A stretch of DNA of 64,000 nucleotides from Firmicutes bacterium HGW-Firmicutes-16. Lineage in GTDB: Bacteria > Bacillota > Clostridia > Oscillospirales > Oscillospiraceae. Shown here piece after piece: positions 6,319 to 52,152 of the stretch (position 1 is the stretch's first letter; the number at the start of each line of letters is the position of its first letter). The notes below the pieces were generated by a model, which was not told the DNA's origin, searched no databases, and was given only the letters and a program-made list of their open reading frames with translations. The translations under genes were made by a program, and so were the position numbers. The stretch lies in contig PGZZ01000010.1 of the NCBI GenBank assembly GCA_002841545.1, forward strand, positions 1 through 64,000, written 5' to 3'.

Positions 6319-6549
6319 ATGAAAACAAATCCTGACAACCGCAAAGATAATGTCGAAAATATTCAGAAAAACATCAATATGACTATTCATAACATGGAAT
6401 TGGCAGATGAAATGATCGCGAAAACTGACAATAAAAAAACAAAAGAAGAGCTTGGCGCAAAGAATGAGAGGCGTGAAGACGCTTTGGAAGGAATGCGTAA
6501 AGAAATTAAGGATGAGGCTAACGCCAGAGACAAAAACAATAGAAATTAA
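6319..6549 (+). CDS. tlp: Small acid-soluble spore protein Tlp (thioredoxin-like protein) homolog
   Basis: 76-aa product. The pattern PDNRKDNVENIQ...KNERREDALEGMRKEIKDEANARDKN matches the B. subtilis Tlp pattern DDRSDNVEKLQ...NREQSIQAFRSEIKDE. Strong RBS AGGAGG 7 nt upstream of ATG 6319. Confidence 0.7.
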   Translation: MKTNPDNRKDNVENIQKNINMTIHNMELADEMIAKTDNKKTKEELGAKNERREDALEGMRKEIKDEANARDKNNRN

Positions 6550-14980: not shown

Positions 14981-15162
14981 TTTTCAAAGCCGCCAAAATG
15001 AATTTGGCGGCTTTGCTATTGTATGATACAATTATAAACACTACGCAGGCACGTCGCAGTGATATATTGCTTATTATAGGGGAATATGTTTTTTAAAGCG
15101 GGAAAAGCGTAAAATAAGATATAACAATTTATACAACGGGGTTTGGCTGAGGGGAAAGCATA

Positions 15163-16914: not shown

Positions 16915-16922
16915 GCGCATTA

Positions 16923-16960
16923 TTAACTTTTTAGAGGACGGATAGGCTTTGCCTATCCGT
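16923..16960 (+). terminator. Rho-independent terminator
   Basis: 15-bp stem agaggacggataggc/gcctatccgtcctct followed by ttt. Confidence 0.75.
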
Positions 16961-17048
16961 CCTCTTTTCGCTCGTCATTCAATAAAGTCAGACAATCAGG
17001 CATCACACATTTTACAAGAAATTAGTGCAGCTTATTGAAAGATGGTGT

Positions 17049-18533: not shown

Positions 18534-19162
18534 TATAATTTCCTCCTTATAATATCAACAACCCAATCACTTTCGGGGTAAGGCATATCCGGTTGCATAG
18601 CCATTTGCTCTGCAATTCCCTGAATCGCGCACCAATATGCAATTGCAAGCGCGTCTGGATTGCCTTCCCGAATGCTGCCGTTTTCCTGACCTTTTTGAAT
18701 AAGCAGGGAAGTCGGCGTATAAATATCAAAGCCTAGAAGCATTTCCTTTACGTTCTGCGGTGCTGCATCGTTAAAAGCTGCCTGACTCATCAAAACAAAC
18801 ATTTTTGCAAAAAAAGGTTCAGTTTGCAGATAGTAAAATAGCTGCTTTGCAGTATCCTCAAAGAACTCCAGCGGTTCTTTATCGGAGGGAGCAACGGTTT
18901 GCATGGGACCCATAATCCCAAGCTCTATTAACTCTTCGTATAGGCTTTCTTTAGATTTAAAATAGTGAAATAGAAGTCCCACACTCATTCCGACTCTCTC
19001 GGCAATATCGCTGATTTTTGTGGCGGCGTAGCCCTTGCGGATAAACAGGTCAAGGGCGGCTTCAAGAATTTCTTCACGGCGCTTTTGTTTTTGATCATCA
19101 CGAATACCCAAATTGTTGAACCTCGATTCAATGAACGCATATTCAATATATACTCGATGCAA
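18533..19162 (-). CDS. TetR/AcrR-family transcriptional regulator
   Basis: TetR HTH KGYAATKISDIAERVGMSVGLLFHYFKSKE. Its stop overlaps the downstream oxidoreductase start. Confidence 0.7.
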   Translation of the reverse strand: MHRVYIEYAFIESRFNNLGIRDDQKQKRREEILEAALDLFIRKGYAATKISDIAERVGMSVGLLFHYFKSKESLYEELIELGIMGPMQTVAPSDKEPLEFFEDTAKQLFYYLQTEPFFAKMFVLMSQAAFNDAAPQNVKEMLLGFDIYTPTSLLIQKGQENGSIREGNPDALAIAYWCAIQGIAEQMAMQPDMPYPESDWVVDIIRRKL

Positions 19163-19220
19163 ATGAATTTGTCAAGAAAAAGCTGAACACTTTTTGTAAT
19201 TCGTTTAGCTGCAGACAGCC

Positions 19221-19272
19221 ACACAAAATTCAACGCCCTTGCGCCAGTCGAATATGACGCAAGGGCGTTGAA
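19221..19272 (-). terminator. Rho-independent terminator (minus strand) ending the symporter operon
   Basis: 15-bp perfect inverted repeat ttcaacgcccttgcg/cgcaagggcgttgaa, followed on the minus strand by UUUUGUGU. Confidence 0.75.
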
Positions 19273-19305
19273 CTATTATTTGCAAATCAATGAAGAATGA
19301 AAGGG

Positions 19306-20919
19306 TCAGTCTGAGACCGCAAGTGGGACTACTTCATCAGCCTCTTTGGCGTTTCCGATTATCGCCCACGCAATAAGCGCGGCTATTATGGATAACGGCA
19401 GGGAAACAACAATTGCATCCACCATTGAGAGAGTGCTGAGCGGTGTATCCCTCACGATTGACGTAGTACCGAAGATTAGTTTGCATATCTGCAGGCTACC
19501 GGAGGTTTTCTCCTGAACAAAGAACAGCCAGAGAAGACTTGTTGCGGAACCTGTGAGTATGCTTGCAATAGCTGCCTTCTTCGGAAATTTCTTAATATAG
19601 AGCGCAGCAATATAGGTCGGCAGAAAAGCAGCTGCGCACAGACCGTAAAACATAGAAGTGCCGATTGCAATTATCGCCATGCTGACGTCCAGCTTGCTGG
19701 AAAGCCAGGTAAGCAGCATGCTGATTATAAGCCCGATCATCATTGCAATACGGGTCAAAGGAATAGTGTCAGCTTTGAGCTTAAGCGATTGCTTCAAAAA
19801 GTCGCTTCCGAGAGCCGTTCCCATTGTATGGATAAGGGCGCTAAGTGTGGAAATACCCGCCGCCATGAGCACGACGAGGAAAACTCCGCCGAACCACTCG
19901 GGCAGGAAGGTTTTGATGAAGATGGGTATGATGCCGTCGTTTGAACCGGCGGCGATGATCGAAACCTGTCCAGTAGTGTTATAGAAAGCAACGTTGGATA
20001 GAGCCCCGACCGTAAAAGCTACGCCTGTCATGAATAGGATGAAGATACCGCCCGAGAGGACTGCGCGATTTAGTTCCCGGCCGCTTTTAACCGTCATAAA
20101 CTTCACCGAGAGCTGAGGCTGAGCGAGAACGCCGATTCCAACGCCCGCCACAAGAGTTGTTACTATGTTCCACCAGACCGGCGTGCCGCCTTTTGGCATT
20201 GTGGTCCAGCCTGTGAAGCCGCCTTTTATGAGCTTTTCTACCTGTTCCGTTATGCCCGGTTTAGTTATAAGCTCTGAAAGAGCAGTATGAGCGCGTGTCA
20301 CGCCGCCGAGCATCGAATAGGTATAAATGATGAGAAAGGCCATGCCTGCAAACATTATTGCACCTTGGAAAGCATCCGCATACATGATGCCTTTAAGCCC
20401 GCCCATTATAACGAATACCGCGACAAGAACTCCAACTATTATAAGTACAACATCAAAGCCGGCTCCGGTATAATTCGATACGAAATCAACGATTCCCTTT
20501 AGCACCGCCGAAGCATAGACCGGCATGAACAAAAAGATAAGGATTCCGGCATAGCCCTGTATAAATTTTGAATTAAAGCGGCGTGCAAAGAGCTCCGGCA
20601 TTGTATTTGAACCCAGTTTGTAACCGATTTCTCTCGTTTTCTTGCCGAATACAACGAAAGCGATTAAAACTCCGACGAAAATATTGAATACAGTAAGCCA
20701 TAACAGCCCCATTCCGAACTGCCCTGCAGCGCCTCCAAAACCGACGATGGCTGAGGTACTGATAAAGGTGGCACCGTAGGACAGAGCCATAACAATTGGA
20801 TGCATGTCCCTTCCGGCCAGAAGATAATCGCTGGTGGTCTTTGTTTTCTTGAAGCCTATGTAGGAGAATAACGACAATACCAAAACATAAACAATCAGGC
20901 TTACTATAATATAAATCAT
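19306..20919 (-). CDS. Sodium:solute symporter (SSS) family transporter
   Basis: 537-aa protein with 13 or more TM helices and PutP/PanF-like SSS topology. Translationally coupled to the upstream small accessory gene (ATGA overlap). Confidence 0.85.
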   Translation of the reverse strand: MIYIIVSLIVYVLVLSLFSYIGFKKTKTTSDYLLAGRDMHPIVMALSYGATFISTSAIVGFGGAAGQFGMGLLWLTVFNIFVGVLIAFVVFGKKTREIGYKLGSNTMPELFARRFNSKFIQGYAGILIFLFMPVYASAVLKGIVDFVSNYTGAGFDVVLIIVGVLVAVFVIMGGLKGIMYADAFQGAIMFAGMAFLIIYTYSMLGGVTRAHTALSELITKPGITEQVEKLIKGGFTGWTTMPKGGTPVWWNIVTTLVAGVGIGVLAQPQLSVKFMTVKSGRELNRAVLSGGIFILFMTGVAFTVGALSNVAFYNTTGQVSIIAAGSNDGIIPIFIKTFLPEWFGGVFLVVLMAAGISTLSALIHTMGTALGSDFLKQSLKLKADTIPLTRIAMMIGLIISMLLTWLSSKLDVSMAIIAIGTSMFYGLCAAAFLPTYIAALYIKKFPKKAAIASILTGSATSLLWLFFVQEKTSGSLQICKLIFGTTSIVRDTPLSTLSMVDAIVVSLPLSIIAALIAWAIIGNAKEADEVVPLAVSD

Positions 20920-21050
20920 TTATTGTCATCCTCCTTTTCCTTAGTGGCGTCCTTGTTCCAATTGAGAACTCCGTAAACGACACAGAAAATTGCGCCGCCG
21001 GCAGATAGTAGATAGGCAAGACAAATTGATACATCTGTCAATCCCAACAT
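20916..21050 (-). CDS. Symporter small accessory membrane protein (DUF997/YhdT-like)
   Basis: 44 aa (MLGLTDVSICLAYLLSAGGAIFCVVYGVLNWNKDATKEKEDDNK) with a single TM helix. RBS GGGAGG. Such a small membrane protein overlapping the start of an SSS gene is the canonical arrangement. Confidence 0.55.
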   Translation of the reverse strand: MLGLTDVSICLAYLLSAGGAIFCVVYGVLNWNKDATKEKEDDNK

Positions 21051-21154
21051 GTTTTTTCCTCCCTTTTCTTTTTTAGTTATTGTTGAAATGCTACGGTGTG
21101 GAAGGAGCGTGAGGGCCGTGGTTTTCGAAATTTTGCCTAAGGCCTGAGAAATAC

Positions 21155-21440
21155 AAAAAAGCCTTCCATCCCTATAAAAATAGGGACGAAAGGCTCTATA
21201 AGCATTCCGCGATACCACCCTGGTTCACATATACCAAAAGATATAATGCGCGCTCTTTATCGGATACTGATCATATCCTATCCCTTTAACGGAGGACTCC
21301 GCACCCACCTACTAATTTTTCAGAGGGCGCGCTCGGAAGGGAACTTCGGCGGATTTATCTTTAGGTCTGCTTTCAGTCAACGACAGACCCTCCCTGATAA
21401 GACAGCACAGCGTACTTTCCTTCTTCATCGCGTTTTAGTG
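21155..21440 (-). promoter_or_regulatory. T-box riboswitch leader (minus strand) with terminator/antiterminator, upstream of the symporter operon
   Basis: The minus strand reads AACCAGGGUGGUAUCGCGG, which matches 13 of 14 positions of the T-box consensus AGGGUGGNACCGCG. It is followed by a 15-bp terminator stem (agcctttcgtcccta/tagggatggaaggct) plus U6. An F-box-like CCGUUA and a GCGAUGAAGAAGG K-turn-like start lie upstream. Confidence 0.65.
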
Positions 21441-37929: not shown

Positions 37930-38192
37930 ACTAAAACTCAAACCAAAGGCGTTGACGGAGAGAGTAAGTTTCAATCGAACGTTCCAGCGAGCCGGGAATG
38001 GTGCAAGCCCGGTACAAGTAGTTTGAAACCGAAAATCACTCCTGAGCTGCGGACCGAACGGGAAACCAAGTAGGCTCCGACGGATTCCCCCGTCATAGGG
38101 AAGGCATATGATTGTACGCTTCAAACGGGTGGTATAGCGAAAGAGCTTTTTAAAAGGCTTTCGTCCCTTTTGTGGAACGAAGGTCTTTTTTT
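37930..38192 (+). promoter_or_regulatory. T-box riboswitch leader, probable isoleucine (AUC) specifier, with an intrinsic terminator
   Basis: T-box motif AAACGGGUGGUAUAGCG at 38123-38139. Antiterminator GGG[UGGUAUA]GCGAAAG...CUUUCGUCCC. Terminator stem aggctttcgtccc/ggaacgaaggtct plus U7 at 38154-38192. By analogy with glyQS (AAGAA-GGC-A-CUUC), the Stem-I elements GGAG-AGAGUAAG ... AAA-AUC-A-CUCC place the specifier at AUC, 38035-38037. Confidence 0.65.
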
Positions 38193-38220
38193 ATATCCAC
38201 TTTTATTACCGGAGGAAAAA

Positions 38221-38808
38221 ATGATGGCTACAAATGAGTTAGTCGAGATTCGCTGGCACGGTCGAGGGGGACAGGGAGCAAAAACAGCCTGTCTGCTGCT
38301 CGCGGAGGTGGCGGCGCTGGAAGGGAAATTCGTACAGGGTTTTCCGGAATACGGACCGGAGCGCATGGGCGCACCGATAACGGCGTATAACCGCATATGC
38401 GAAAAACGGTGTACCGTCCATTCAAACATCTACTATCCGAACTATGTGGTCGTTGTGGACGAGAGTCTGCTGGACAGTGTCAATGTCACTGCGGGACTAA
38501 AAGAGGGCGGAGCTGTGATTATCAACACGCCTAGCTCTCCCGAGGAAATACGTCCGAAGCTGAGTGGCTGGACCGGCAGGGTCAGCACAATTGACGCCCG
38601 CCGTATTTCGGAAGAGATTCTGGGAAAGAACTTCCCGAATACTCCGATGCTGGCTGCCGTCGTCAAGGTGAGCGGCGTTTTGGACGTTGAGCGTTTTCTA
38701 GCTGATATTGAAGATTCCTTCAGACATAAATTTGCGTCCAAGCCTCAGGTCATAGAGGGAAACATGGCGACACTCAAGAAATCCTTAGAGGAGGTGCAGG
38801 AAGGATGA
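38221..38808 (+). CDS. 2-oxoacid:ferredoxin oxidoreductase gamma subunit (Por/Vor family)
   Basis: N-terminus EIRWHGRGGQGAKTA is the gamma-subunit signature. RBS GGAGG. The track ORF begins inside the upstream terminator; ATG 38221 was chosen. Confidence 0.8.
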   Translation: MMATNELVEIRWHGRGGQGAKTACLLLAEVAALEGKFVQGFPEYGPERMGAPITAYNRICEKRCTVHSNIYYPNYVVVVDESLLDSVNVTAGLKEGGAVIINTPSSPEEIRPKLSGWTGRVSTIDARRISEEILGKNFPNTPMLAAVVKVSGVLDVERFLADIEDSFRHKFASKPQVIEGNMATLKKSLEEVQEG

Positions 38809-39113
38809 TCCATGCAAAGGATATTAACGAACGTACCCCGTGGGAGGAAATGACCCCGGGCGGTGAGATATATGAGCCGGGCACCGCAAGGGATTTTGAT
38901 ACAGGTACATGGAGAACAGACACACCCGTTTTCATTGCCGAAGCCTGCAAGCACTGTATGCTCTGTGTCCCGTTCTGTCCGGACAGCGCAATCCCCGTAA
39001 AAAACGGAAAGCGTCTTGAATTTGACTTTATGCACTGCAAGGGCTGTGGTATCTGCGTAACTGTCTGCCCCTTCGCCGCGATAAAAATGGTGTCCGGAGG
39101 TGATGCAGAATGA
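38805..39113 (+). CDS. 2-oxoacid:ferredoxin oxidoreductase delta subunit (2x[4Fe-4S] ferredoxin-like)
   Basis: Two CxxCxxCxxxCP motifs (CKHCMLCVPFCP, CKGCGICVTVCP). Overlaps the flanking genes. Confidence 0.8.
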   Translation: MIHAKDINERTPWEEMTPGGEIYEPGTARDFDTGTWRTDTPVFIAEACKHCMLCVPFCPDSAIPVKNGKRLEFDFMHCKGCGICVTVCPFAAIKMVSGGDAE

Positions 39114-40294
39114 GTATTTGCTTTTCCGGTAACGAGGCTGTAGCTTACGCTATGAAGCAGATAAATCCCGACGTTATGGGCGCGTTCCCGATAACTCCGT
39201 CCACGGAGATCCCCGAGTATTTCGCACAGTTTGTTGCGAACGGCGAGGTCAACACCGAGTTCGTGACCGTAGAGTCCGAGCACAGCTCAATGTCCGTGTG
39301 CATTGCGGCTGAAGCGGCTGGAGCCAGAAGCGTCTGCGCGACCTCCTCCTGCGGACTTGCGCTGATGTACGAAATGCTCTACGTCGCCGCGTCCGACCGC
39401 CTTCCAATAACGCTCGCCTGCGTAAACCGTGCGCTTTCGGGACCAATCAATATTAATAACGACCACTCGGATTCGATGGGCGCCCGCGATACCGGCTGGA
39501 TACAAATCTATGCCGAAAACAATCAGGAGGCCTACGATAATTTCATCATGTCCGTGCCTATAGGCGAGAGCGTGCGTCTGCCCGTTATGGCCTGTATGGA
39601 CGGCTTTATAACGAGCCACGCCGTTGAGAATATCGAGCTTTTAGAAACGGACTCCGTGCACGGATTCGTAGGGGCTTATGAGCCCGAAAACTATTTGCTG
39701 AAAAAGGAAAATCCTCTGGCTATAGGGCCATATGATATAAGCGCGTATTACATGGAGCACAAGGTACAGCAAGCCGAAGCTATGAAGAGCGCGAAGCAGC
39801 GCATACTCGAGGTGGGGACGGCGTTTGAGAAGCTTTCTGGTCGCAGTTACGGACTTTTTGAGGAATACCGTATGGAGGATGCCGAGCTTGCGATAGTCCT
39901 TATCGGCTCAAGTGCAGGAACGGCCAAGGAAGCGGTTGAAAATCTGCGCGAACAAGGTGTCAAGGCGGGACTTGTAAAGATAAGAGTGTTCCGTCCCTTC
40001 CCGAGTGAGGAGCTTGCGAAGGCTCTCGCCAATACCAAGGCAGTAGCAGTTTTGGATAAATCCGAGGGCTTTTCGGCAAACGGGGGACCTGTATTTGCCG
40101 AGACCCGCAGCGCCTTGTACGATTTGAAGGAACGTCCGTATCTTATTAATATCGTCTACGGTCTGGGCGGTCGTGACTTTAAAACGGAGGATGCCGAAAA
40201 GGTGTTCGCAAGACTTGCGAGAATCGCGGCTACGGGAGAGACCGGACTCGTATACACCCACATGGGACAAAGAACAAGGGAGGCGATAGTATGA
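39110..40294 (+). CDS. 2-oxoacid:ferredoxin oxidoreductase alpha subunit
   Basis: 394-aa Por/Vor alpha-subunit architecture. Overlapping start and stop. Confidence 0.8.
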   Translation: MSICFSGNEAVAYAMKQINPDVMGAFPITPSTEIPEYFAQFVANGEVNTEFVTVESEHSSMSVCIAAEAAGARSVCATSSCGLALMYEMLYVAASDRLPITLACVNRALSGPININNDHSDSMGARDTGWIQIYAENNQEAYDNFIMSVPIGESVRLPVMACMDGFITSHAVENIELLETDSVHGFVGAYEPENYLLKKENPLAIGPYDISAYYMEHKVQQAEAMKSAKQRILEVGTAFEKLSGRSYGLFEEYRMEDAELAIVLIGSSAGTAKEAVENLREQGVKAGLVKIRVFRPFPSEELAKALANTKAVAVLDKSEGFSANGGPVFAETRSALYDLKERPYLINIVYGLGGRDFKTEDAEKVFARLARIAATGETGLVYTHMGQRTREAIV

Positions 40295-41229
40295 ACACGG
40301 TTTATGACCTGAAGCGTGAGGTTGAAAAGCCCGCGCGTTTGACAGGTGGGCATCGCCTTTGCGCTGGCTGCGGAGCTGGCATCGTCGTGTCGGGAGTCCT
40401 CCGCGCATTGAATGAAGAGGACAGGGCCGTTGTGGTGAATGCCACCTGCTGTCTCGAGGTTTCAACCTTCATGTACCCCTACACCGCCTACACGGACAGC
40501 TACATACACACTGCCTTTGAAAACGCCGGGGCGACCTGCTCAGGAGTCGAAGCGGCATATAATGCGCTCAAGCGCCGAGGGAAGGTTGACGACACAGTTA
40601 AGTTCATCACCTTCGGCGGTGATGGCGGTACCTATGACATCGGATTTCAATCCCTTTCGGGAGCGATGGAGCGCGGTCACGACATGGTCTATGTTTGCTA
40701 CGACAACGAGGCCTATATGAACACCGGTATACAGCGCTCATCCTCAACTCCGCAGTTTGCCCGCACGACTACAACTCCCGTCGGTTCATCCAGACAGGGG
40801 AAGCTGCAGAACAAGAAAGACCTGACCGAGATACTGGTCGCTCACAACATCCCGTATGCGGCGCAGACCGCTCCTATGGGCAACCTTAAAGACCTGCACA
40901 CTAAGGCGCACAAGGCCATCTATACTGAAGGCGCATGCTTTTTGAACATACTTTCACCTTGTCCGCGCGGCTGGGATTACCCAATGGCAAAGCTGCCCGA
41001 GATTATTAAGCTTGCGGTCGACACCTGTGTCTGGCCTCTCTATGAGGTGGAAGAAGGTGTCTGGCGTCTGAGCTATACGCCGAAGAAAAAGCTTCCCGTA
41101 GAAGACTATCTCCGCTCACAGGGTAGGTTCAGACATATGTTCCAAAAGGGCAACGAGTGGATGCTCGAAGAAGCGCAGAAATATGTGGATCAGAAATGGG
41201 AGCGTCTGCTCGAGCGCACCGGCGGCTGA
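40291..41229 (+). CDS. 2-oxoacid:ferredoxin oxidoreductase beta subunit (TPP-binding)
   Basis: TPP/Fe-S motifs (CAGCG, GGDGG.YDIG) of Por/Vor beta subunits. Confidence 0.8.
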   Translation: MNTVYDLKREVEKPARLTGGHRLCAGCGAGIVVSGVLRALNEEDRAVVVNATCCLEVSTFMYPYTAYTDSYIHTAFENAGATCSGVEAAYNALKRRGKVDDTVKFITFGGDGGTYDIGFQSLSGAMERGHDMVYVCYDNEAYMNTGIQRSSSTPQFARTTTTPVGSSRQGKLQNKKDLTEILVAHNIPYAAQTAPMGNLKDLHTKAHKAIYTEGACFLNILSPCPRGWDYPMAKLPEIIKLAVDTCVWPLYEVEEGVWRLSYTPKKKLPVEDYLRSQGRFRHMFQKGNEWMLEEAQKYVDQKWERLLERTGG

Positions 41230-43348: not shown

Positions 43349-45940
43349 ATGGCGACTAAAATCGAACCCAATATCGTATATCCACTGAATGGTGGATACG
43401 TCGGCGACCTTGCGCCTACACTTCGCGGCACGGGCGAACCGGGAGCCTCCGTGACAGGACAGCTGGACGGAAAGCCTTTTTCCGCAGCAGTTTCTGATAA
43501 CGGCGTGTGGTCTTATAGAGCGGAGCAACAGCTGCAGGATTTGACTGAGCATTCTCTAAGCTTGAGTCAGACAGACCAAATCGGACAAACAAGTCCCGCA
43601 AAAACCGTATCTTTCAGAACAGATACACAGCTCCTGCTTCACCATACCCTGAAATACCCTCAGAATAACCAGATTATAAAAACAAATTCTCCGATTATAA
43701 GCGGGACGGGAAAAGCCGGAGCGACAATCGAGGCTGAGCTTGGCGGAAAGATTTATAATACGGTCGTCGATAGAAACGGCTCATGGCAGATACAGGCAAA
43801 TGCCGTTCCAGAGGGTTCGTCCTTTCTTTATGTCATTCAAAAGGACATGGGAAATATGAGCCCTGCGCTCTGCGCAGGCTTCATGGTCGATACGATTGCG
43901 CCCTCAGGGCCGACCGTGGAATTTCCCGCCGATCAGAGCTTTATCAATAATCCGATTCCCACGTTTTGCGGCGAAGGTGAACCGAACGCTTCAATCAGCG
44001 CGGTCGTCGACGAGAAAAAATATTTTGCACAGGTGAATCAGCAGGGTAAGTGGAACTTTGAAATCAGCGAAGGGCTAATGGATGACACTCACATTCTCTC
44101 AACAAGGCAAATTGATCTTGCAGGCAATATCAGTCCCGAGATTATAAGTATTTTTACGATTAAAACGGTGCAGCCTTCCCCGCCCGTAATAGTCAGTCCC
44201 ATAAGCGGGTCAATAACAGCGGATACTTCTCCTGAAATATCTGGTATGGGCGAAAAAGGCTGCGTCATTTTAACCCGAATATATGATAAAGTGTATAGCA
44301 CTGAGGTCGGGCGAGATGGCACATGGCAGATGACGATTTCAGATAAACTTGCAGACGGAACGCATACCCTTAAGGTGTATCAGGCGGATAAAGCCGGAAA
44401 TATTAGCTCTGATGCGGAGCTGACGCTAAGGGTAGATACGTCGGTTCCGGCGGCACCCGTAATTATTTATCCTGAAAAGGGCGGATACGTTTCCAGCAAA
44501 AATTTCATGGTCAGAGGAACGGGTGAGCCGGATTCAAAGGTGATTTGCACGGTTGCCGGCAAGGAATATACCGCACCTGTTGCGCCTGACGGGAGCTGGG
44601 CTGTCGATGTTACAAATAATGAAAATATTAAATACAAAATGGATTATACTATCTCGGCAAAGCAGGTAGACCTCGCGGGAAATGAGAGCACTGCAGTCAA
44701 AACGGTGTTCGATGTTGACCCCGAGCGGCTGAAAGCGCCGGAAATCGCCTTTCCTACGAACGGAACGAGCATTAACACTCCGAATCCGCTTATAACCGGA
44801 ACGGGCAAAGCAGGTGCAAAGGTCGAGCTATCTCTGAACGGCAAAAAATATACTGCTGCCGTTCAGAGCAACGGCACATGGGCGGCACAGATTACGGAAG
44901 ATTTGTCAAAGGGTGCAAATACCCTGATTCTAAGCCAGACTGATTGCGGAAATGTCAGCCAATCAGAATCTGCAAGCTTCAATGTAAAGCTTTCAAATCC
45001 GCCGTGCCCTACTATCGATACGCCGACAGATAAACAGCCCGTCGCAAGCGCTGACGTTATTATAAGTGGCAGGGGAGAAGCGGGGGCGCAGGTGAACATT
45101 AAACTTGATGATGCTTGTTACCATACGCAGGTCGGAGCGGATTGCTCATGGGAATACACCGTTTTGGGACTCTTACAGGGCATCCATGCAATGCTTGTGA
45201 GTCAAAAGGACCAGTCCGGAAACGAGAGTGCCTGTGCCAGTGTGTGCTTTGCCACAATGCCTGCGCAGCCGAACCTGAATCGAAAGAGCTATCCCACAGC
45301 GTATACGATAAGCTATAATCCTCCCGGACCGGAGCTCGCTTCAAAGACGATTGCAACGCTCAGAACAAGCAATCCCGTAACTTATAATAAGGTGCTTGGT
45401 AATGAGTTTTCAATGATAATTCCGGCAAACGGCACCTACGATTTTAATTATATCGAGGAAAATGGGACAAGCGGCAGCGTGACGGCGGGCGTCACCTGGA
45501 TTGATAACGAAGCGCCGATAATTGTCATCGAACCTTCCGGAAAGTACTATTCCTCCGATAAAACGGTCAGTTTCTATAAATTCGGCGGCTCCAGTATCAA
45601 AGCTGCGCTCCTTAACGGAACGCCTTTTAAAACAGGTACAAAAGTATCTGCGGAGGGCAAGTACCAGATCGAGATAACTGACAAGGCAGGCAATATCGCC
45701 GCGGGATGCTTTGTTATAGACAGGAGCTCGCCCACCGTTACAGGAGCAGAAAACAATATGGTCTACAATACCGACGTAACGCTGAATTGGTCAGATGATA
45801 TATCGGGAATTAAAAGTTCGGTGCTGAACGGGCTGAACATCCTGCCCGGGACTGTTTTAACCGAAAACGGCGCATATACGCTCACTGTGACCGATTTTGC
45901 CGATAACATCACGGAAAGAAGCTTTAGCATACAAAAATAA
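43349..45940 (+). CDS. Large (863 aa) protein with about seven tandem bacterial Ig-like domains and a distinct C-terminal domain; no signal peptide
   Basis: Repeated ~90-aa units with the consensus YP.NG......P...GTGE.GA.V...L.GK.Y.A.V..NG.W.......L..G.H.L...Q.D.AGN.S. RBS AAGGAG. Confidence 0.6.
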   Translation: MATKIEPNIVYPLNGGYVGDLAPTLRGTGEPGASVTGQLDGKPFSAAVSDNGVWSYRAEQQLQDLTEHSLSLSQTDQIGQTSPAKTVSFRTDTQLLLHHTLKYPQNNQIIKTNSPIISGTGKAGATIEAELGGKIYNTVVDRNGSWQIQANAVPEGSSFLYVIQKDMGNMSPALCAGFMVDTIAPSGPTVEFPADQSFINNPIPTFCGEGEPNASISAVVDEKKYFAQVNQQGKWNFEISEGLMDDTHILSTRQIDLAGNISPEIISIFTIKTVQPSPPVIVSPISGSITADTSPEISGMGEKGCVILTRIYDKVYSTEVGRDGTWQMTISDKLADGTHTLKVYQADKAGNISSDAELTLRVDTSVPAAPVIIYPEKGGYVSSKNFMVRGTGEPDSKVICTVAGKEYTAPVAPDGSWAVDVTNNENIKYKMDYTISAKQVDLAGNESTAVKTVFDVDPERLKAPEIAFPTNGTSINTPNPLITGTGKAGAKVELSLNGKKYTAAVQSNGTWAAQITEDLSKGANTLILSQTDCGNVSQSESASFNVKLSNPPCPTIDTPTDKQPVASADVIISGRGEAGAQVNIKLDDACYHTQVGADCSWEYTVLGLLQGIHAMLVSQKDQSGNESACASVCFATMPAQPNLNRKSYPTAYTISYNPPGPELASKTIATLRTSNPVTYNKVLGNEFSMIIPANGTYDFNYIEENGTSGSVTAGVTWIDNEAPIIVIEPSGKYYSSDKTVSFYKFGGSSIKAALLNGTPFKTGTKVSAEGKYQIEITDKAGNIAAGCFVIDRSSPTVTGAENNMVYNTDVTLNWSDDISGIKSSVLNGLNILPGTVLTENGAYTLTVTDFADNITERSFSIQK
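43370..45270 (+). repeat. Intragenic tandem array of about 7 divergent Ig-like domain coding repeats (~270-290 nt each)
   Basis: Seen at the protein level within the 43349..45940 product. The nucleotide copies are diverged. Confidence 0.5.
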
Positions 45941-45957
45941 AGCCATTCAAGCAAAAA

Positions 45958-45990
45958 AGACCTGAAAACATCTTGTTTTCAGGTCTTTTC
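45958..45990 (+). terminator. Bidirectional intrinsic terminator between convergent genes
   Basis: Stem gacctgaaaac/gttttcaggtc, flanked by A6 upstream and T4 downstream. Confidence 0.75.
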
Positions 45991-45996: not shown

Positions 45997-47421
45997 TCAT
46001 TTCAGAACACTGATCGCATCCTTAATTGTCTTTTCGAAGGCTTCTCTGCCGTATTTATCGACCTGATCCTTATCCTTCTCGCCATGGGTGAGGCAACCAG
46101 CACCGGCTATACACCCGCCAGTACAGGCCATGCCCTCGATGAAGTTTGCATCCAGCTTTTTAGCTCGCAGGCGGAGCAGAGCGGCACGACACTCTTCGAG
46201 TCCGTCACAGGAAATGGGTTTGTAACTAAAGTCTGTTATGCCGTTTTCCTTCAGACCTTCTCGGACGGCGTCCGCAAGACCTCCGCTTCGGGCGAAGATG
46301 CGCCCGAAGTACGAGGCGTTATCCAAAACTTCCTCTTCAGCCGTTGTTATATCTACGCCCTTTCCGTCAAATAGCGCCTGAAGTTCTTCAAAGGTGATGA
46401 CGCTGTCGATATAGGGTCTGACCTCATCCTTGCGCATTTCGGATTTCTTCGCTGTGCAGGGGCCGATGAAAACGACCTTCGCGTCGGGATCTCTTGATTT
46501 TATGTATTTCCCCAAAATTGCCATTGGCGACAGGTTATGCGAGACGTGCCCCAGAAGGTCGGAAAATTCATGCTTAATGTAGCTTACGAAAGCAGGGCAG
46601 CAGGAGCTTGTTAGAAGTCCGCGCTCATTGAGCTCCCGACTTTCTGCGTCCGCAACCATATCGGCACCTAGAGCGGTTTCTACCACAGAATGGAAACCTA
46701 GCTGCTTTATGCCCGATACTACCTGACCGATTTTTGCGTAGTTGAATTGACTTGATATGGAGGGCGCAACAAGTGCATACACCTTGTAGTTCTCGTTGTT
46801 GCAGCTGTTTTTGAGAAGCCCGATTACGTCGAGAATTAACGATTTGTCCATGATCGCACCAAAGGGGCACTGATAGACACAGGCTCCGCAGCCAACGCAT
46901 TTGAGGTTGTTGATTTCGGCGGTCTTGTCCTCCGACATGCTTATTGCCTTGACCTTGCAGGCGTTTTCACAGGGACGCTTTCGGCTTACAATAGCGGTGT
47001 AGGGACAGACCTTTGCACAGCGTCCGCACTCGACGCATTTTGATTTGTCGATCCGTGCCTTCTGCTCGTGGTCAAAGACTATTGCTCCGCGCGGACAGGC
47101 ATCCTCGCAGCGGTGCGCGATGCAGCCACGGCAGGACTCCGTAATCTCGAAGCCGCCGACGGGGCACTCGTCACACGCGATGTCGATGACCTCAATAATA
47201 TTTGGATTTGACCTGTCTCCGCCCATCGCAAGCTTGACTCTTTCGCCGAGGATGGCTCTTTCCTTGTATACGCAGCATCTCATTGTCGGCTGTTTGCCCG
47301 GAACTATAGTTTTGGGAATGTCCATGACATTCTCGAGAAGTCTGCCCTCAAAGGCAAGCCTTGCGACCTCTGTCAAAACCTTATATTTCAGATGCTGTAC
47401 CTTTGTATCGAATTTTCTCAT
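45997..47421 (-). CDS. hydA: [FeFe]-hydrogenase HydA-like protein (two ferredoxin-like 4Fe-4S domains plus an H-cluster domain) with an atypical N-terminal ~70-aa region
   Basis: H-cluster motifs L1 TSSCCPAFV, L2 GPCTAKKSE and L3 EGMACTGGCIAGAG. Multiple CxxCxxCxxxCP motifs. Confidence 0.7.
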   Translation of the reverse strand: MRKFDTKVQHLKYKVLTEVARLAFEGRLLENVMDIPKTIVPGKQPTMRCCVYKERAILGERVKLAMGGDRSNPNIIEVIDIACDECPVGGFEITESCRGCIAHRCEDACPRGAIVFDHEQKARIDKSKCVECGRCAKVCPYTAIVSRKRPCENACKVKAISMSEDKTAEINNLKCVGCGACVYQCPFGAIMDKSLILDVIGLLKNSCNNENYKVYALVAPSISSQFNYAKIGQVVSGIKQLGFHSVVETALGADMVADAESRELNERGLLTSSCCPAFVSYIKHEFSDLLGHVSHNLSPMAILGKYIKSRDPDAKVVFIGPCTAKKSEMRKDEVRPYIDSVITFEELQALFDGKGVDITTAEEEVLDNASYFGRIFARSGGLADAVREGLKENGITDFSYKPISCDGLEECRAALLRLRAKKLDANFIEGMACTGGCIAGAGCLTHGEKDKDQVDKYGREAFEKTIKDAISVLK

Positions 47422-47463
47422 ATCGCGCCTCCGATTTAAGGCTAAGGGTGAAATCCCATTACC

Positions 47464-48642
47464 TTAAAAGTAGCTTACCTTGATTTTCTTTCCCATTTTC
47501 TTCAAACATTCCGCAAGCTGGTCTACAAGTCTCATTTTTATGCTGAAATTGATCGGCAGATTCGGATTTTGATGTGCCGGATTGACTGCCATACCCACGA
47601 AGAAGTTTATATCCGTGGCTTCCTCAAAAAGCAGCCGTGCAATAAGTGACGCTCCATCCTTTTTATAGCCCCAGACCTTATAAGACTCGTTGTCTTTCAG
47701 ATAATCCTGCGAGTAAGTGAGCACCTTGTTAATTGTAATTACGCCCTCGGTTACAAGGTCGATTCCTTCGCATTCCGCAGTCGGCGGAATGTCGTTGTCG
47801 AAGTATTCAAGCTTTGTTCGCAGCGGTTTATGCAAATATTCGGACGCGATGGTCGAGGTCGTACCGCCGCAGACGATGTGCTTTCCCTCCTTGGAGAAGA
47901 ATAGGGACATCATCCGACCGCATTCGCTCGGATCGGAGGGAGGACCTATCACGAGATTCATCGGCTCTCTTTTGCGAATTTTTACGGTGCAAACCGTGGT
48001 GTCGTCGCCCGGCCTACCGCCGTAAAGGCTGTTGCATTCGTCAAGAAGCATTGTCGTCAAAGTTTTTGCTGTGAAGCCGATGTGAACGAAAGTTTTTACA
48101 AAATCGATGATGTTCTCACGTTTCCAGCCCAGATTCAGCGTCACACCGATTCCGGCATGGGGAGCACCATCGCTCAAAGCAATGAAAATATCGTCCTCTT
48201 TAATGCGTATCTTTGATTTTAGTATCTTTTTACCCGCTATATCAATCGTTTCGGTCGGGTAGTCGATGTTTTCACCGCCACGAAGCAGGATGACTTTGGG
48301 ATTGTCATATTGAATCAGTTCCGCCTCGGTGCCGTTCACAATGTGGATAATCGTAAAGGTCGAGTAGGCGACGCCGCGCACTGAGCACACGGGCAAAGTC
48401 TGCGCAATGGTTTCGACACACTCTTCGATACTCATGCCCGCCGCCATCATCGTTGAGATAATCTTTGATGTCAAAGTTGAGAGAATGCTCGCCTTGACGC
48501 CGCTTCCAAGCCCGTCGGCAAGGACAATTACCATGGAATTCTCACCGTGCTCGACGACCTCAACATGGTCGCCGCACAGCTCTTCTCCGAATTTGTTGAG
48601 GCTGCTGCAGCCTATATCCGCGCAAAGATTATTCATCTCCAA
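47464..48642 (-). CDS. PP2C-type (SpoIIE/RsbU-like) serine phosphatase fused to a ~190-aa C-terminal domain of unknown function
   Basis: N-terminal PP2C-like core (VIVLADGLGSGVKASILS... DDIFIALSDGAPHAG). Start overlaps the hydS stop. Confidence 0.6.
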   Translation of the reverse strand: MEMNNLCADIGCSSLNKFGEELCGDHVEVVEHGENSMVIVLADGLGSGVKASILSTLTSKIISTMMAAGMSIEECVETIAQTLPVCSVRGVAYSTFTIIHIVNGTEAELIQYDNPKVILLRGGENIDYPTETIDIAGKKILKSKIRIKEDDIFIALSDGAPHAGIGVTLNLGWKRENIIDFVKTFVHIGFTAKTLTTMLLDECNSLYGGRPGDDTTVCTVKIRKREPMNLVIGPPSDPSECGRMMSLFFSKEGKHIVCGGTTSTIASEYLHKPLRTKLEYFDNDIPPTAECEGIDLVTEGVITINKVLTYSQDYLKDNESYKVWGYKKDGASLIARLLFEEATDINFFVGMAVNPAHQNPNLPINFSIKMRLVDQLAECLKKMGKKIKVSYF

Positions 48643-50308
48643 GCGACTCCTTCAATTTCGTGAGAGCGATCTTAGTCTCAGCGGTGGTTTCGCCCAGAAG
48701 CGAAGCGATTTCCTGAACCACGCGCATCTGCTTTTCAATGACCTTGTCGGTTATCTCTATGGTTTTAAGGCTGATTTCCTCTTTCTTCTGACGCTCGGTC
48801 TCTTCGTCGGTGACGTCGCGCAGTATGCACAGCAGCATGCGGTAAACCTTGTCCAGAACAATGGTCTGCTCAATGTATTTTTTGTACTCGGCAAGATATA
48901 ACCTGCTATTGCGCAGGGATCTGCCAGTTCGCAGTACTTCCGAAAAGGCGGCGGGCTCAAGTATGCATACGACGTTTGCTCCCACGATATCCGAAGCGCT
49001 TTTAATATTAAGTATGTTTAGCGCGGCGGGATTAATCTGCTGGACTTCAAGACTCTCACTCAGAACGATGATGCCGTTGGGGCTGTTCCGAAGGATATTT
49101 GACGAAAAGGTCTCGGCCTTGTCCTTCAAAAACGGGGTGCACATCGAGAGTTCTGCCTTGCCCTGAAATACCGCTATCGCTTTTTCACGGCAGGAGTTGT
49201 AACCGCAGCTTCCACAGTTGAGCTCGTCCTCGGGAGTGTTTTTGCCCATTTTGAGTAAAATCTCGCTGAGCTGAAGCTCGTTGGGATAGGTCTGGGGGTG
49301 AACAAGGGACTCAAACGTTCTTGATATGCTGTCTTTCGAGGGTGCGTTCACGGTGAAGTCACTCCAGCCCGCAAATTTGCTGACAGCAATATAGTCCTGC
49401 AAGGGTGCGTGACGGGTGCTGCTCATCGCCGGACCACCGATACAGCTGCCAACACAGGAGGACATTTCGACAAAGCATCTTGTGATATTGCCAACCGAAA
49501 TATCGCGCAAGGTGCTAATGCAGTTTTCTTGACCGTCAACTGAAAAATAGCTATATTCCTCCGAAACGCAGTCCATGGACTTCAAGATGCCGCCGGAAGT
49601 CGGGAAGATCCGCGTGCGTCCATTTTCACTTGAGTCGTCTGCCTGTGAGACAGGCTCGATGCCTTCCGACTTGAGCCAGTTTGCAAGCTCGTCGAAGGTC
49701 AGCGCGCAGTCGACATCGCAGGGAAATTCGTCCGCTTCATATTTCTTTGAAATACAGGGGCCAATGAAAACAGTTTTTGCCTCGGGGTATCTGCTTTTTA
49801 TATCGCGGCAGTGCGCCACCATCGGAGAGACGACCTTGGCAAGGCGGGAGATAAGCTCCGGAAAATGCTTCTGTATCATGAGATTGACGGAAGGACAGCA
49901 GGACGAGATGATAATCTCCTGCTCACCGCACTTTATGAGTTCTTCATATTGCTTTTTCACTATCACGGCACCGCGCGCGGTTTCTTCCGCGGCGCAAAAG
50001 CCAAGCTTTTTGAGCGCCTGTTCCATACCGCCAATGCCAATCCCGGGGAAAGCGGCGGCAAAGGACGGCGCAAGACTGACGATGACGGGTTCACTCCCGC
50101 GAAGCAGAGCCTTTGCCTTATCGATATCGTCCCTGACAACCTTTGCGTTTTGGGGGCAGACGATGAAGCACTGACCGCACAGAATGCATTCGTCGGCAAT
50201 AATGTGGGCCTGATTCTCGGAAAAACTTATGGACTTTGTCGGGCAGTGCCTAATGCACTTATAGCAGTTTTTGCAGTTGGCTTCTTTTAGACGTATATAA
50301 TCTGACAC
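48629..50308 (-). CDS. hydS: Sensory [FeFe]-hydrogenase HydS-like protein: Fe-S domain, H-cluster domain and C-terminal PAS domain
   Basis: H-cluster-like motifs ISSCCPSV, GPCISKKYE and EMSSCVGSCIGGP. Additional CxxCxxC clusters. C-terminal PAS-like region (NSPNGIIVLSESLEVQQINPAALNIL...). Start was set at GTG 50308, which has a GGAGG RBS 8 nt upstream. The longer track ORF would overlap the upstream ferredoxin gene. Confidence 0.75.
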   Translation of the reverse strand: MSDYIRLKEANCKNCYKCIRHCPTKSISFSENQAHIIADECILCGQCFIVCPQNAKVVRDDIDKAKALLRGSEPVIVSLAPSFAAAFPGIGIGGMEQALKKLGFCAAEETARGAVIVKKQYEELIKCGEQEIIISSCCPSVNLMIQKHFPELISRLAKVVSPMVAHCRDIKSRYPEAKTVFIGPCISKKYEADEFPCDVDCALTFDELANWLKSEGIEPVSQADDSSENGRTRIFPTSGGILKSMDCVSEEYSYFSVDGQENCISTLRDISVGNITRCFVEMSSCVGSCIGGPAMSSTRHAPLQDYIAVSKFAGWSDFTVNAPSKDSISRTFESLVHPQTYPNELQLSEILLKMGKNTPEDELNCGSCGYNSCREKAIAVFQGKAELSMCTPFLKDKAETFSSNILRNSPNGIIVLSESLEVQQINPAALNILNIKSASDIVGANVVCILEPAAFSEVLRTGRSLRNSRLYLAEYKKYIEQTIVLDKVYRMLLCILRDVTDEETERQKKEEISLKTIEITDKVIEKQMRVVQEIASLLGETTAETKIALTKLKESLGDE

Positions 50309-50345
50309 TGGATATTCCTCCGTTTCCGCACGTTTTGGAACAAGC

Positions 50346-50585
50346 TCAGAGCTTTGCAAGAACTTCCTTTTCAAAGAAGCTTCGAACGCCATCGGGGCTG
50401 AGTGAATGGATTGTTTCATCAATCTTGACACTGACCCCGCTCTGGCAGGCACCAAGACAGAAGGTTCCGATGAGCTCAACCTTGTCCCCAAGACGGTTTT
50501 CCTCTATTAGCGCCTGAAGCTGCTCCACGATCTGCCTTGAACCTTTAAGGTGGCAGGAGCTTCCTATGCAAACAGTTAGTTTCAT
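50346..50585 (-). CDS. Thioredoxin-like [2Fe-2S] ferredoxin
   Basis: 79 aa with four Cys in C..SC...........C...C spacing (CIGSSCHLKG...FCLGACQ), typical of Trx-like 2Fe-2S ferredoxins. Confidence 0.6.
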   Translation of the reverse strand: MKLTVCIGSSCHLKGSRQIVEQLQALIEENRLGDKVELIGTFCLGACQSGVSVKIDETIHSLSPDGVRSFFEKEVLAKL

Positions 50586-50604
50586 TTCAGTCTCCTTTTA
50601 CAAT

Positions 50605-51249
50605 TTAAATCTGCTGGAGCAGACTCTCTTTTTGTGACAGATTCTTTGATAGGACGGCAAGAGAAGCCGCTATGTTTTCGTTTTTAAGTATAACATCCTT
50701 CGGAACGATAAGGTGAATCGGGGCGAAATTCCAGATTGCCTTAATGCCGCTTGCTACAAGGCTGTCGCAGACCTTCTGCGCTTCAGATGCAGGAACGGTA
50801 ATTATTCCAAGCTCAATCTTCATGCGCTTGCACAGATTCTCCATTTTGCTCAAGGGAAGTATCTGCTTTCCGCTATCGTCCGCTCCGCATATTTCGGAAT
50901 CGCAGTCGAAGCCTGCGACGATGTTCAGCCCGTAGGCTCGAAAGCCCTGATATGAAAGAAGCGCCTTGCCGAGCTTTCCGGCCCCGACGAGAATGGCGTC
51001 GTTCACATTGTCATAGCCGAGGTAACCCTCAATGTCGCGAATAAGCTCTTTAGTGCAGTAGCCGACTTTCGGCTTTCCACCATCCGACACCGAGGATAGG
51101 TCTTTTCTGACCTGAATCTCGCCGAAGCCAAGTGCGTTCCCGAGAGCCTTTGCGGAGATGTTCTTTTCCTTTTCCGATGGCAGAGCCCTAAGATGTTGCA
51201 GATAGAGCGGAAGCCGCTGCAGAGTTTGCATTGAAATCGCTTTTGCCAT
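50605..51249 (-). CDS. rex: Redox-sensing transcriptional repressor Rex
   Basis: N-terminal winged-helix TLQRLPLYLQHLRAL plus a Rossmann NADH-binding domain (ILVGAGKLGKAL). Confidence 0.85.
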   Translation of the reverse strand: MAKAISMQTLQRLPLYLQHLRALPSEKEKNISAKALGNALGFGEIQVRKDLSSVSDGGKPKVGYCTKELIRDIEGYLGYDNVNDAILVGAGKLGKALLSYQGFRAYGLNIVAGFDCDSEICGADDSGKQILPLSKMENLCKRMKIELGIITVPASEAQKVCDSLVASGIKAIWNFAPIHLIVPKDVILKNENIAASLAVLSKNLSQKESLLQQI

Positions 51250-51283
51250 TAATATCCCTCCCGAACCCGAATCTGAGATTCCA

Positions 51284-51333
51284 ATTAGATAATGGTATAT
51301 CGATAATCTATTATCGATATACCATTATCTAAT
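51284..51333. repeat. Perfect 50-bp palindrome (24-nt arms, 2-nt centre) immediately upstream of the rex start
   Basis: AATTAGATAATGGTATATCGATAAT-CT-ATTATCGATATACCATTATCTAATT, ending 35 nt upstream of rex ATG 51249. Confidence 0.9.
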
Positions 51334-51379
51334 GCTCTTGTCAATGTCTTTTTTGGAAAATGTGCAATTAATAGCAAAA

Positions 51380-51413
51380 GGCCCCGCGATTCGGTAATCG
51401 CGGAGCCTTTTTT
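51380..51413 (+). terminator. Hairpin with T-tract (terminator-like) in the FNT-rex intergenic region
   Basis: Stem ggccccgcgat/atcgcggagcc followed by T6. Oriented for plus-strand termination although the flanking genes are on the minus strand, so it may act bidirectionally. Confidence 0.4.
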
Positions 51414-51522: not shown

Positions 51523-52152
51523 TTATAAGATTGTTGAAGTGACCTTCTCATTTTTATCCTTCGCCATTTCACAGAGCCAGCTCAGGAGCAGAGCGCCGAC
51601 CGTGTTGCCGAGGATTATTATGAGAAGGAGTAAAACATTCAGATTCCGCGCTAGATTGAAATAGAACATGTCCGCAATGCTGTGCTCAAAGCCTGATAGT
51701 ATGAATATCATCACAATGAAGATGACCCCCAGAGCCTTGCCGACGTAGCTTTCAATAGACCTGAACAGCTCGACACCCAAAAACATCAGCATCCCGCAGA
51801 AAATTGCCAGAATGAACATGCTTATGTAGCTGTCACCCAGCTTTACGGCGGTAACTGCCGCCACAGTTTCCATTATATTCAGGCGCGTAAACCTTATCAT
51901 AACGGAGACAAAAAGCGTACCGAGGAAGTTGCCGACCAGAGTTATGAGAAGGTCCCGTACATATTCCCGGTTGAGGTTCAGCACCAGATATCCAATCTTT
52001 CCGGTGAAGAGATTCAGCTTCATGTTCAAAATTGCGAACAGTCCGAATGAAAACAAAAAACTGCCGATGAGCTTGTTCTCGCACATAAGAAAAATTACGC
52101 ATCCGATACTGATGAGAATTCCGGCTAAAAAGCTCCTTATCAAAACCCGCAT
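51523..52152 (-). CDS. Formate/nitrite transporter (FNT) family channel, short variant
   Basis: 209 aa, six TM helices. FNT signature FEHSIADM and the LFTG motif. Confidence 0.55.
   Translation of the reverse strand: MRVLIRSFLAGILISIGCVIFLMCENKLIGSFLFSFGLFAILNMKLNLFTGKIGYLVLNLNREYVRDLLITLVGNFLGTLFVSVMIRFTRLNIMETVAAVTAVKLGDSYISMFILAIFCGMLMFLGVELFRSIESYVGKALGVIFIVMIFILSGFEHSIADMFYFNLARNLNVLLLLIIILGNTVGALLLSWLCEMAKDKNEKVTSTIL

Follow-up and report, generated by a model that had tools for sequence, protein, structure and literature searches.

A compact locus in Firmicutes bacterium HGW-Firmicutes-16 (Oscillospiraceae) probably belongs, in a reduced form led by rex, to the hfs / hydS-PP2C-hydA2 operon class of fermentative Clostridia, and would encode a hydrogen (H2)-sensing circuit in which a sensory-type [FeFe]-hydrogenase, HydS, signals through a PP2C-family phosphatase. 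The locus lies in the window analysed here, the first 64,000 nucleotides (nt) of contig PGZZ01000010.1 (assembly GCA_002841545.1), and comprises five minus-strand genes that code for the repressor Rex, a small thioredoxin-like ferredoxin, HydS, the phosphatase and a second hydrogenase of catalytic type. The preliminary description of this DNA took the circuit to be undescribed. This does not hold, as the HydS-PP2C-hydrogenase arrangement has been published for hfsABCD (PMC5707799, PMC11837493), for Ruminococcus albus (PMC6776011) and as HydDB group C3 (PMC5037454), so that a link of HydS with a PP2C, a second hydrogenase and Rex is already on record. Comparison with relatives adds two new leads: a conserved, cluster-heading putative operator, and an uncharacterised Rossmann-like domain at the C-terminus of the PP2C that is also encoded by itself next to ferredoxin and kinase genes.

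The genes and control elements of the locus are as follows (lengths of proteins in amino acids, aa; profile scores here and below in bits, against the cutoff).

51376-51411, both strands: bidirectional intrinsic terminator with a 16-bp G+C-rich stem and a T run on both strands
51339-51344, minus strand: putative -35 hexamer TTGACA, inferred from the sequence
51284-51333, strand-symmetric: perfect palindrome of 50 nt, with 24-nt arms, a 2-nt spacer and three GATA-N6-TATC units
50605-51249, minus strand: rex, redox-sensing (NADH/NAD+) transcriptional repressor, 214 aa, first gene of the unit
50346-50585, minus strand: thioredoxin-like [2Fe-2S] ferredoxin, 79 aa (PF01257, 30.1 against 24.8)
48629-50308, minus strand: hydS, sensory-type [FeFe]-hydrogenase, 559 aa, with a GTG start at 50308 behind a GGAGG site
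47464-48636, minus strand: PP2C/SpoIIE-family Ser/Thr phosphatase, 390 aa (PF07228 SpoIIE, 49 against 25)
45997-47421, minus strand: monomeric [FeFe]-hydrogenase of catalytic type, NCBIfam B1 (TIGR04105), 474 aa, in the position of HfsD/HydA2
45953-45989, minus strand: intrinsic terminator, a GACCTGAAAACA/TGTTTTCAGGTC stem followed by T6

A compact, probable transcription unit

All five open reading frames (ORFs) follow one another in tandem on the minus strand, where they had first been placed, and each is backed by Pfam and NCBIfam profile matches, which also uphold the proposed identities of rex, the ferredoxin, HydS, the PP2C and the hydrogenase. The spacing is tight throughout: 19 nt separate rex from the ferredoxin gene and 37 nt the ferredoxin gene from hydS, the hydS stop and the ATG of the phosphatase gene share an 8-nt overlap (ATGAATAA), and a 42-nt gap with a GGAGG site precedes the last hydrogenase. 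Terminators occur at the two ends of the unit only. The upstream one closes the gene of a formate/nitrite-transporter (FNT)-like protein and marks the upstream edge, and the downstream one begins 8 nt past the hydrogenase stop codon. A scan of the whole unit with Rfam returned only sub-threshold hairpin matches, at the downstream terminator. Given terminators at both ends and this spacing, the five genes look like one transcription unit. Of 67 species-level genomes with enough flanking sequence, about 65 have the genes in the same order, which indicates that the neighbouring positions are not due to chance.

A sensory-type hydrogenase coupled to a phosphatase

Independent gene calls on the same DNA give HydS 559 aa in one case and 587 aa in another. 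The longer ORF, which begins at an upstream TTG and overlaps the ferredoxin gene, was rejected in favour of the GTG with its GGAGG site, as relatives are ~558 aa long. Along the protein follow two [4Fe-4S] motifs, the H-domain, a Cx2Cx4Cx16C motif, a PAS domain and a conserved C-terminal helical tail. Pfam matches comprise two Fer4 domains (family matches at residues 67-116 in the numbering of the longer ORF), PF02906 Fe_hyd_lg_C (2e-47), PF04060 FeS (40 against 23) and weak PAS matches. When HydS is aligned to solved hydrogenases, its SSCCPS, GPCISKKYE and EMSSCVGSC segments fall on the motifs of C300, C355, C499 and C503; all four H-cluster cysteine ligands are present, and they are conserved across 74 homologues, every one of which also carries the Cx2Cx4Cx16C motif. 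The sensory-type architecture proposed in the preliminary description, H-cluster motifs followed by a C-terminal PAS domain, is thus borne out by domains and alignment.

In its two N-terminal [4Fe-4S] motifs, H-domain and Cx2Cx4Cx16C motif, HydS resembles the HydS proteins of Thermotoga maritima (group C, M2f) and Thermoanaerobacter mathranii (group D, M2e) (PMC8163306). The proton pathway, disrupted in those proteins, appears to be partly so here: K, L and A stand in for the proton-relay residues E279, R286 and S319, the counterparts of C299 and E282 are kept, and M353G and M497S are the pair reported for the T. maritima sensor (PMC8163306). Unlike both classes, in which the proton-transfer cysteine C299 is stated not to be conserved (PMC8163306), the HydS of the window retains the equivalent cysteine, and 73 of the 74 homologues keep the CC doublet to which it belongs. 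The P1 motif of the window protein (49892-49909) reads SCCP, as in 3 of the 74 family members, and nearly all of the other 71 have SCCH.

The PAS assignment appears sound at the level of the family. The match of the window protein alone is sub-threshold (PAS_9, 22.6-25.6 against 27); all 41 homologous HydS C-termini match PF00989 (PAS), and a profile of the family C-terminus finds the cytoplasmic PAS domain of CitA (8bjp, E 6.5e-4). The helical tail of ~60 residues that follows the PAS domain is the most conserved stretch of the HydS C-terminus.

The phosphatase has its catalytic domain at about residues 1-222, with SpoIIE and RsbU as best Pfam and structure matches. The PP2C fold and metal-binding aspartates are present, catalytic residues are invariant and the active site is complete. 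The tight link between the two genes that was first noted here recurs in relatives, as the same 8-nt overlap is found in 62 of 66, and on this basis the PP2C is taken to be translationally coupled to HydS.

Residues 223-390 (47467-47970) form a separate alpha/beta domain, Rossmann-like, whose own structural model has a predicted local distance difference test (pLDDT) score of 85. This C-terminal domain matches no Pfam family, and its conservation equals or exceeds that of the catalytic domain. Across 116 diverse representatives, the conserved residues sit in the loops CGGT, DLVTEG, DGA and NPAH. An exhaustive HMMER search gave 1045 representatives at E up to 0.001, mostly the C-termini of ~390-aa proteins, with some stand-alone proteins of ~162 aa. 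In three of four informative contexts, the stand-alone protein is encoded directly after a small [2Fe-2S] ferredoxin, and two of these three also include a kinase (loci of related genomes carry L numbers).

L087: adhE, kinase, ferredoxin, C-terminal domain (1530-2018)
L088: transporter, ferredoxin, C-terminal domain (1832-2323)
L091: LysR, kinase, ferredoxin, C-terminal domain (6001-6489), with a 4-nt overlap and with neither a hydrogenase nor a PP2C domain

These contexts suggest a functional tie of the domain to ferredoxin and kinase that extends beyond the phosphatase. A further stand-alone copy (L089) sits on a 725-nt contig whose context is uninformative. The metagenomic locus L090 (5317-6489) was rejected as a stand-alone case: there the phosphatase gene that follows hydS is split into three ORFs (105, 92 and 162 aa) and looks decayed.

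The downstream hydrogenase, Rex and the ferredoxin

The last gene encodes what looks like a working catalyst, because it retains both the motifs (SCCP, GPCTAKKSE and EGMACTGGC) and the proton-pathway counterparts: on alignment to CpI, the equivalents of E279, E282, R286, C299 and S319 are all kept. It matches Fe_hyd_lg_C (PF02906, 3.5e-61) and TIGR04105 (571.4 against 450), the latter with residues 4-446 covering model positions 1-461 of 462. Its first 70 residues had been read as a non-standard N-terminus in place of Fe-S domains, a reading that fails, as this segment is typical of TIGR04105 and Fer4 domains follow it at about residues 95-190. A TSCCCP motif with a supernumerary cysteine marks the CpIII type of group B (PMC12138974). 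The window protein and all 68 of its homologues have TSSCCP instead, so we rejected a CpIII-type assignment and file the enzyme as B1.

Rex is identified by the NCBIfam equivalog NF003994 (275 against a cutoff of 130), by its winged-helix (PF06971, Put_DNA-bind_N) and Rossmann NADH (PF02629, CoA_binding) domains, and by a GAGKLG nucleotide-binding motif. The ferredoxin has its cysteines in a Cx4C...Cx3C pattern (C6-x4-C11...C43-x3-C47) and is the sole homologue of its kind in the 64-kb window.

Conservation across fermentative Clostridia

A one-genome-per-species scan with the PP2C as query found relatives in at least 586 genomes, mostly gut and rumen Clostridia (Oscillospiraceae, Acutalibacteraceae, Ruminococcus, Christensenellales and Lachnospiraceae); the closest among the matches listed, at 86% identity, is in an uncultured Oscillospiraceae genome. 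Counts were taken from the 80 best loci of these at least 586, with each feature scored only where the flank sufficed.

HydS directly upstream of the PP2C: 66 of 67
same 8-nt hydS/pp2c overlap: 62 of 66
B1 hydrogenase downstream: 58 of 64
ferredoxin upstream of hydS: 64 of 65
two ferredoxin copies: 45 of 65
APH-like kinase of 250 aa in the cluster: 40 of 61
adhE in the cluster: 25 of 49
rex in the cluster: 13 of 46
LysR-type regulator heading the cluster: 23 of 46

The full order is LysR, [rex], adhE, kinase, ferredoxin, [ferredoxin], hydS, pp2c, hydrogenase, where brackets mark genes that may be absent. The counts suggest a core of ferredoxin, hydS, pp2c and hydrogenase, to which LysR, rex, adhE, the kinase and a second ferredoxin are optional additions. 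The cluster of the window appears to have lost the LysR-type regulator, adhE, the kinase and the second ferredoxin and to have kept rex, a trimmed form (rex, ferredoxin, hydS, pp2c, hydrogenase) that it shares with one Lachnospiraceae genome (L079). The adjacency of rex, which had been singled out as special, loses that standing with rex present in the clusters of 13 of 46 genomes.

The kinase of relatives is APH/RIO1-like, lies between adhE and the ferredoxin, and has intact motifs (CHGDFNPSN, of the form HGDxxxxN, and DW; for example L004, 6988-7740). It is the probable counterpart of the PP2C in those genomes. The LysR-type regulator, of ~310 aa, is encoded immediately ahead of the cluster and in the same orientation (L004 3218-4162, L012 2562-3491, L042 2624-3550 and 25 other loci); its HTH_1 domain alone matches Pfam, and the effector domain has no match.

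None of these optional partners turned up in the window: tblastn of the 64 kb with the APH-like kinase, AdhE, the iron-type alcohol dehydrogenase (Fe-ADH) and the LysR-type regulator gave no significant match. The earlier statement that neither a histidine kinase nor an anti-sigma partner is present stands within the range covered, as Pfam detected no histidine kinase, anti-sigma, protein kinase, STAS or HATPase domain within 10 kb on either side, nor in ORFs of 200 aa or longer scanned in the rest of the window (a few short ones, of 96-147 aa, lay outside the scan). Among the related loci, those with listed Pfam content likewise lack STAS and HATPase_c domains.

In a common gut relative (L003-L006, ~15100-21173), whose PP2C cluster occurs on more than 120 contigs, a prophage with terminase, portal and capsid genes lies a few kb downstream of the hydrogenase cluster.

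A conserved putative operator

The perfect palindrome ahead of rex is a putative operator and the probable point of transcriptional control of the operon. Its core, TATCGATA-N6-TATCGATA (51298-51319), is unique in the window and had no matches in shuffled sequences; the arms are 100% complementary and the folding z-score is -9.9. The palindrome lies between the putative -35 hexamer and the rex start, and a putative, poor -10 (TATATC, 51316-51321), 17 nt downstream of the -35, falls within it. The consensus promoter scan omitted this promoter, as the -10 fails its position-6 rule.

The same element, as TATCGATA-N6/N7-TATCGATA, heads the cluster in about 20 other species, ahead of its first gene (rex in 11 cases, adhE in 10 and a ferredoxin gene in 2), stands twice before a downstream Fe-ADH gene, and is all but absent from the rest of the 1.19 Mb of related loci. 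Loci with the core are L010, L012, L015, L025, L042-L045, L047, L059-L061, L068, L074, L077, L084 and L085, and degenerate ATATC-N6-GATAT versions are seen in other relatives. Neither the LysR gene nor any of the minimal modules L087, L088 and L091 has such boxes ahead of it.

The element was rejected as a standard Rex box, as it has no canonical match and coexists with a true Rex box in L059. A search for the canonical Rex operator (TTGTTAA-N4-TTAACAA, up to 3 mismatches) found none near the operon and five in the window, which is the chance level. Twelve relatives without rex in the cluster carry canonical Rex boxes upstream of adhE. The LysR-type regulator and the Rex of the cluster are candidate binders of the palindrome, and presence of the box tracks neither LysR nor rex cleanly (the window, L010 and L077).

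Relation to described systems

Among the closest described systems by gene order and domains is hfsABCD of Thermoanaerobacterium, in which HfsB is a PAS-containing hydrogenase, HfsC a serine phosphatase and HfsD a ferredoxin-linked hydrogenase (PMC11837493). The window has the same four-gene order as T. saccharolyticum and T. thermosaccharolyticum (small protein, PAS-hydrogenase, phosphatase, hydrogenase), and the 79-aa ferredoxin is likened to HfsA by position alone. The differences are that rex stands at the front of the operon and that the host is mesophilic and Oscillospiraceae-like rather than a thermophile. Deletion of hfsB raises hydrogenase activity and adhE expression (PMC5707799), an effect read as deregulation of hfsD (PMC12288451), and hfsD alone in a strain without hfsABCD reproduces the phenotype (PMC11837493).

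R. albus 7 has an eight-gene cluster with hydS, a phosphatase, hydA2, adhE and regulators, in which the group C PAS sensory hydrogenase and a ‘serine or threonine phosphatase subunit’ are co-transcribed with a ferredoxin-only hydrogenase (PMC6776011). Transcripts of the cluster were 111-fold lower in co-culture with an H2 consumer that kept H2 low; the change was attributed mainly to the H2 level and not to the syntrophic partner, as fermentation stoichiometries match those at high versus low H2 (PMC6776011). The surveyed gut relatives match this extended order, from LysR, rex, adhE and kinase through two ferredoxins to hydS, pp2c and the hydrogenase, whereas the window is without adhE, the APH-like kinase, the second ferredoxin and the LysR-type regulator. 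R. albus HydA2 is classed as group A1 (PMC6776011), in contrast to the TIGR04105 (B1) enzyme found here.

HydDB defines group C3 as ‘phosphatase-linked (putative)’ by association with a Ser/Thr phosphatase and proposes H2 sensing for it (PMC5037454). The likeness to C3, as judged by gene neighbourhood, is the adjacent, co-directional Ser/Thr phosphatase gene; the HydS of the window differs in keeping the C299-equivalent cysteine. In Vallitalea, C3 and group B hydrogenases lie two gene numbers apart (peg.96 and peg.98, PMC6163223).

The other obvious comparison is with the partner-switching modules RsbU/RsbV/RsbW and SpoIIE/SpoIIAA/SpoIIAB. Here no STAS substrate or GHKL kinase is encoded in the parts of the window that were scanned, no sigma factor is involved, and the kinase of relatives has an APH/eukaryotic-like fold, unlike the GHKL kinases of those modules. 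The PP2C of the window would be placed under the control of a hydrogenase, as opposed to the stressosome or the cell-division machinery.

Possible signalling routes

That the output of HydS is not understood, as the preliminary description held, still stands: a paper of May 2026 (PMC13277313) calls the mechanism unknown, and in the literature found neither the substrate of the PP2C nor the output of the circuit is identified. In the route that we consider probable, H2 would equilibrate with the H-cluster of HydS and the resulting redox state would pass to the C-terminal [4Fe-4S] cluster of the Cx2Cx4Cx16C motif, which adjoins the PAS domain. The PAS domain and the conserved C-terminal helix would then alter the activity of bound PP2C, shifting the phosphorylation of a target; in most relatives, the phosphatase would remove the phosphate that the APH-like kinase adds. 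The outcome may set the amount or activity of the ferredoxin-dependent B1 hydrogenase (and of AdhE in relatives) as H2 builds up. Rex would add an NADH/NAD+ input, with Rex and the palindromic operator acting at the promoter. With no local kinase in the window, the circuit would be either dispersed across the genome, with the kinase that opposes the PP2C encoded elsewhere, or simplified to work without one.

Several points weigh against this route. The C299-equivalent cysteine (SCCP) makes some turnover by HydS possible, and the PAS match of the window protein by itself falls under the Pfam cutoff. No kinase, STAS protein or other obvious substrate appears within reach of the operon, nor does a canonical Rex box lie near it, though relatives carry one upstream of adhE. 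The steps from PAS to PP2C, from PP2C to target and on to hydrogenase output are inferred.

One alternative, which we rate as unlikely, is that the output is post-translational: through phosphorylation, HydS and the PP2C would control how active their target is, be it the catalytic hydrogenase, the ferredoxin or the phosphatase's own C-terminal domain, and the palindrome would serve an unrelated regulator. This would suit the roughly one third of genomes in which the core of ferredoxin, hydS, pp2c and hydrogenase occurs without a transcription factor or kinase in the cluster, the conserved extra PP2C domain that stands alone beside a ferredoxin in three loci (two of them with a kinase), and the report that changes in adhE expression do not account for all of the activity changes in T. 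saccharolyticum (PMC5707799). However, the R. albus transcripts differ 111-fold between pure culture and co-culture (PMC6776011), many genomes have a conserved operator and a LysR-type regulator along with the cluster, and no phosphosite has been reported.

A more speculative and unlikely proposal concerns the C-terminal domain of the PP2C, which may be the missing signalling element of this class of H2 sensor, as a phospho-switch or a ferredoxin-docking module. The APH-like kinase would write the mark and the HydS-controlled PP2C erase it, with output to the LysR-type regulator or to Rex at the TATCGATA-N6-TATCGATA operator. If so, the hydrogenase-less L091 module of LysR, kinase, ferredoxin and C-terminal domain would be the ancestral form of the switch, a redox module to which HydS and the PP2C were later joined.

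Are the ferredoxin, HydS and the last hydrogenase instead one catalytic ‘Hfs’ complex, with HydS there for turnover or electron transfer and the PP2C as an accessory regulator? In favour are the original naming of the operon as a hydrogenase (hfs), the presence in HydS of every H-cluster ligand and of the C299-equivalent cysteine, the low but genuine activity of enzymes of groups C and D (PMC8163306), and the possibility, raised in 2026, that HfsABC works as a hydrogenase without HfsD (PMC13277313). Deletion of hfsB, however, increases rather than lowers hydrogenase activity (PMC5707799), HfsD is functional when expressed alone (PMC11837493), and HydS combines a PAS domain with the loss of the E279, R286 and S319 equivalents. 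We regard such a complex as distinctly unlikely.

It is very unlikely that the module senses redox poise, in the form of the reduced ferredoxin pool, and not H2. The [2Fe-2S] ferredoxin and the accessory clusters of HydS would then be the input, with Rex for NADH, in keeping with the thioredoxin-like ferredoxin gene found ahead of hydS in 64 of 65 genomes (and present twice in many of them), with the persistence of ferredoxin and PP2C C-terminal domain together where hydrogenases are absent (L088 and L091) and with rex in the same operon here. A pure redox sensor would have no need of the complete H-cluster site found in all 74 HydS homologues, however, and regulation in R. albus was attributed mainly to the H2 level (PMC6776011).

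That the genes are mere neighbours and the PP2C a SpoIIE/RsbU-type sporulation or stress phosphatase acting on a distant STAS protein is extremely improbable: SpoIIE and RsbU are its best Pfam and structure matches, the host is probably a spore former and a gene for a SleB-like hydrolase is nearby, but the conserved hydS/pp2c overlap (8 nt, 62 of 66 genomes) and the near-universal gene order, the absence of STAS or HATPase partners from loci with inspected Pfam content, and the absence of the SpoIIE membrane and regulatory regions (TIGR02865, 42 against a cutoff of 491) all stand against it.

Genomic neighbourhood

Directly upstream of the unit, and separated from rex by the bidirectional terminator, a 209-aa protein of the formate/nitrite-transporter family (PF01226) is encoded at 51523-52152 on the minus strand, and may bear on fermentative formate handling. 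A four-subunit 2-oxoacid:ferredoxin oxidoreductase (POR) operon (gamma, delta, alpha and beta) occupies ~38170-41229 on the plus strand, ~5 kb from the hydrogenase operon, and is a plausible source of reduced ferredoxin for the B1 hydrogenase to reoxidise. Convergent with the end of the hydrogenase operon, a plus-strand gene (43349-45940) encodes an 863-aa protein of repeated immunoglobulin-like (Big_13/Big_6) domains.

Significance

The partial pressure of H2 sets the choice of gut and rumen fermenters between acetate plus H2 on the one hand and ethanol and lactate on the other, a choice that feeds into both methanogenesis and the production of gas. For this fermentation switch, the HydS-PP2C module is the foremost candidate sensor, and its output is still not known after more than ten years. 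The window itself adds no new kind of system, being a trimmed, rex-led form of a widespread operon. The survey shows that the module is common (at least 586 species) and rigidly organised, with the 8-nt overlap of hydS and pp2c in 62 of 66 cases; it separates core from optional genes, finds a conserved putative operator and flags a conserved, unannotated domain of the phosphatase. The operator and the C-terminal domain of the PP2C provide concrete experimental handles on the circuit in tractable relatives, such as R. albus and Thermoanaerobacterium.

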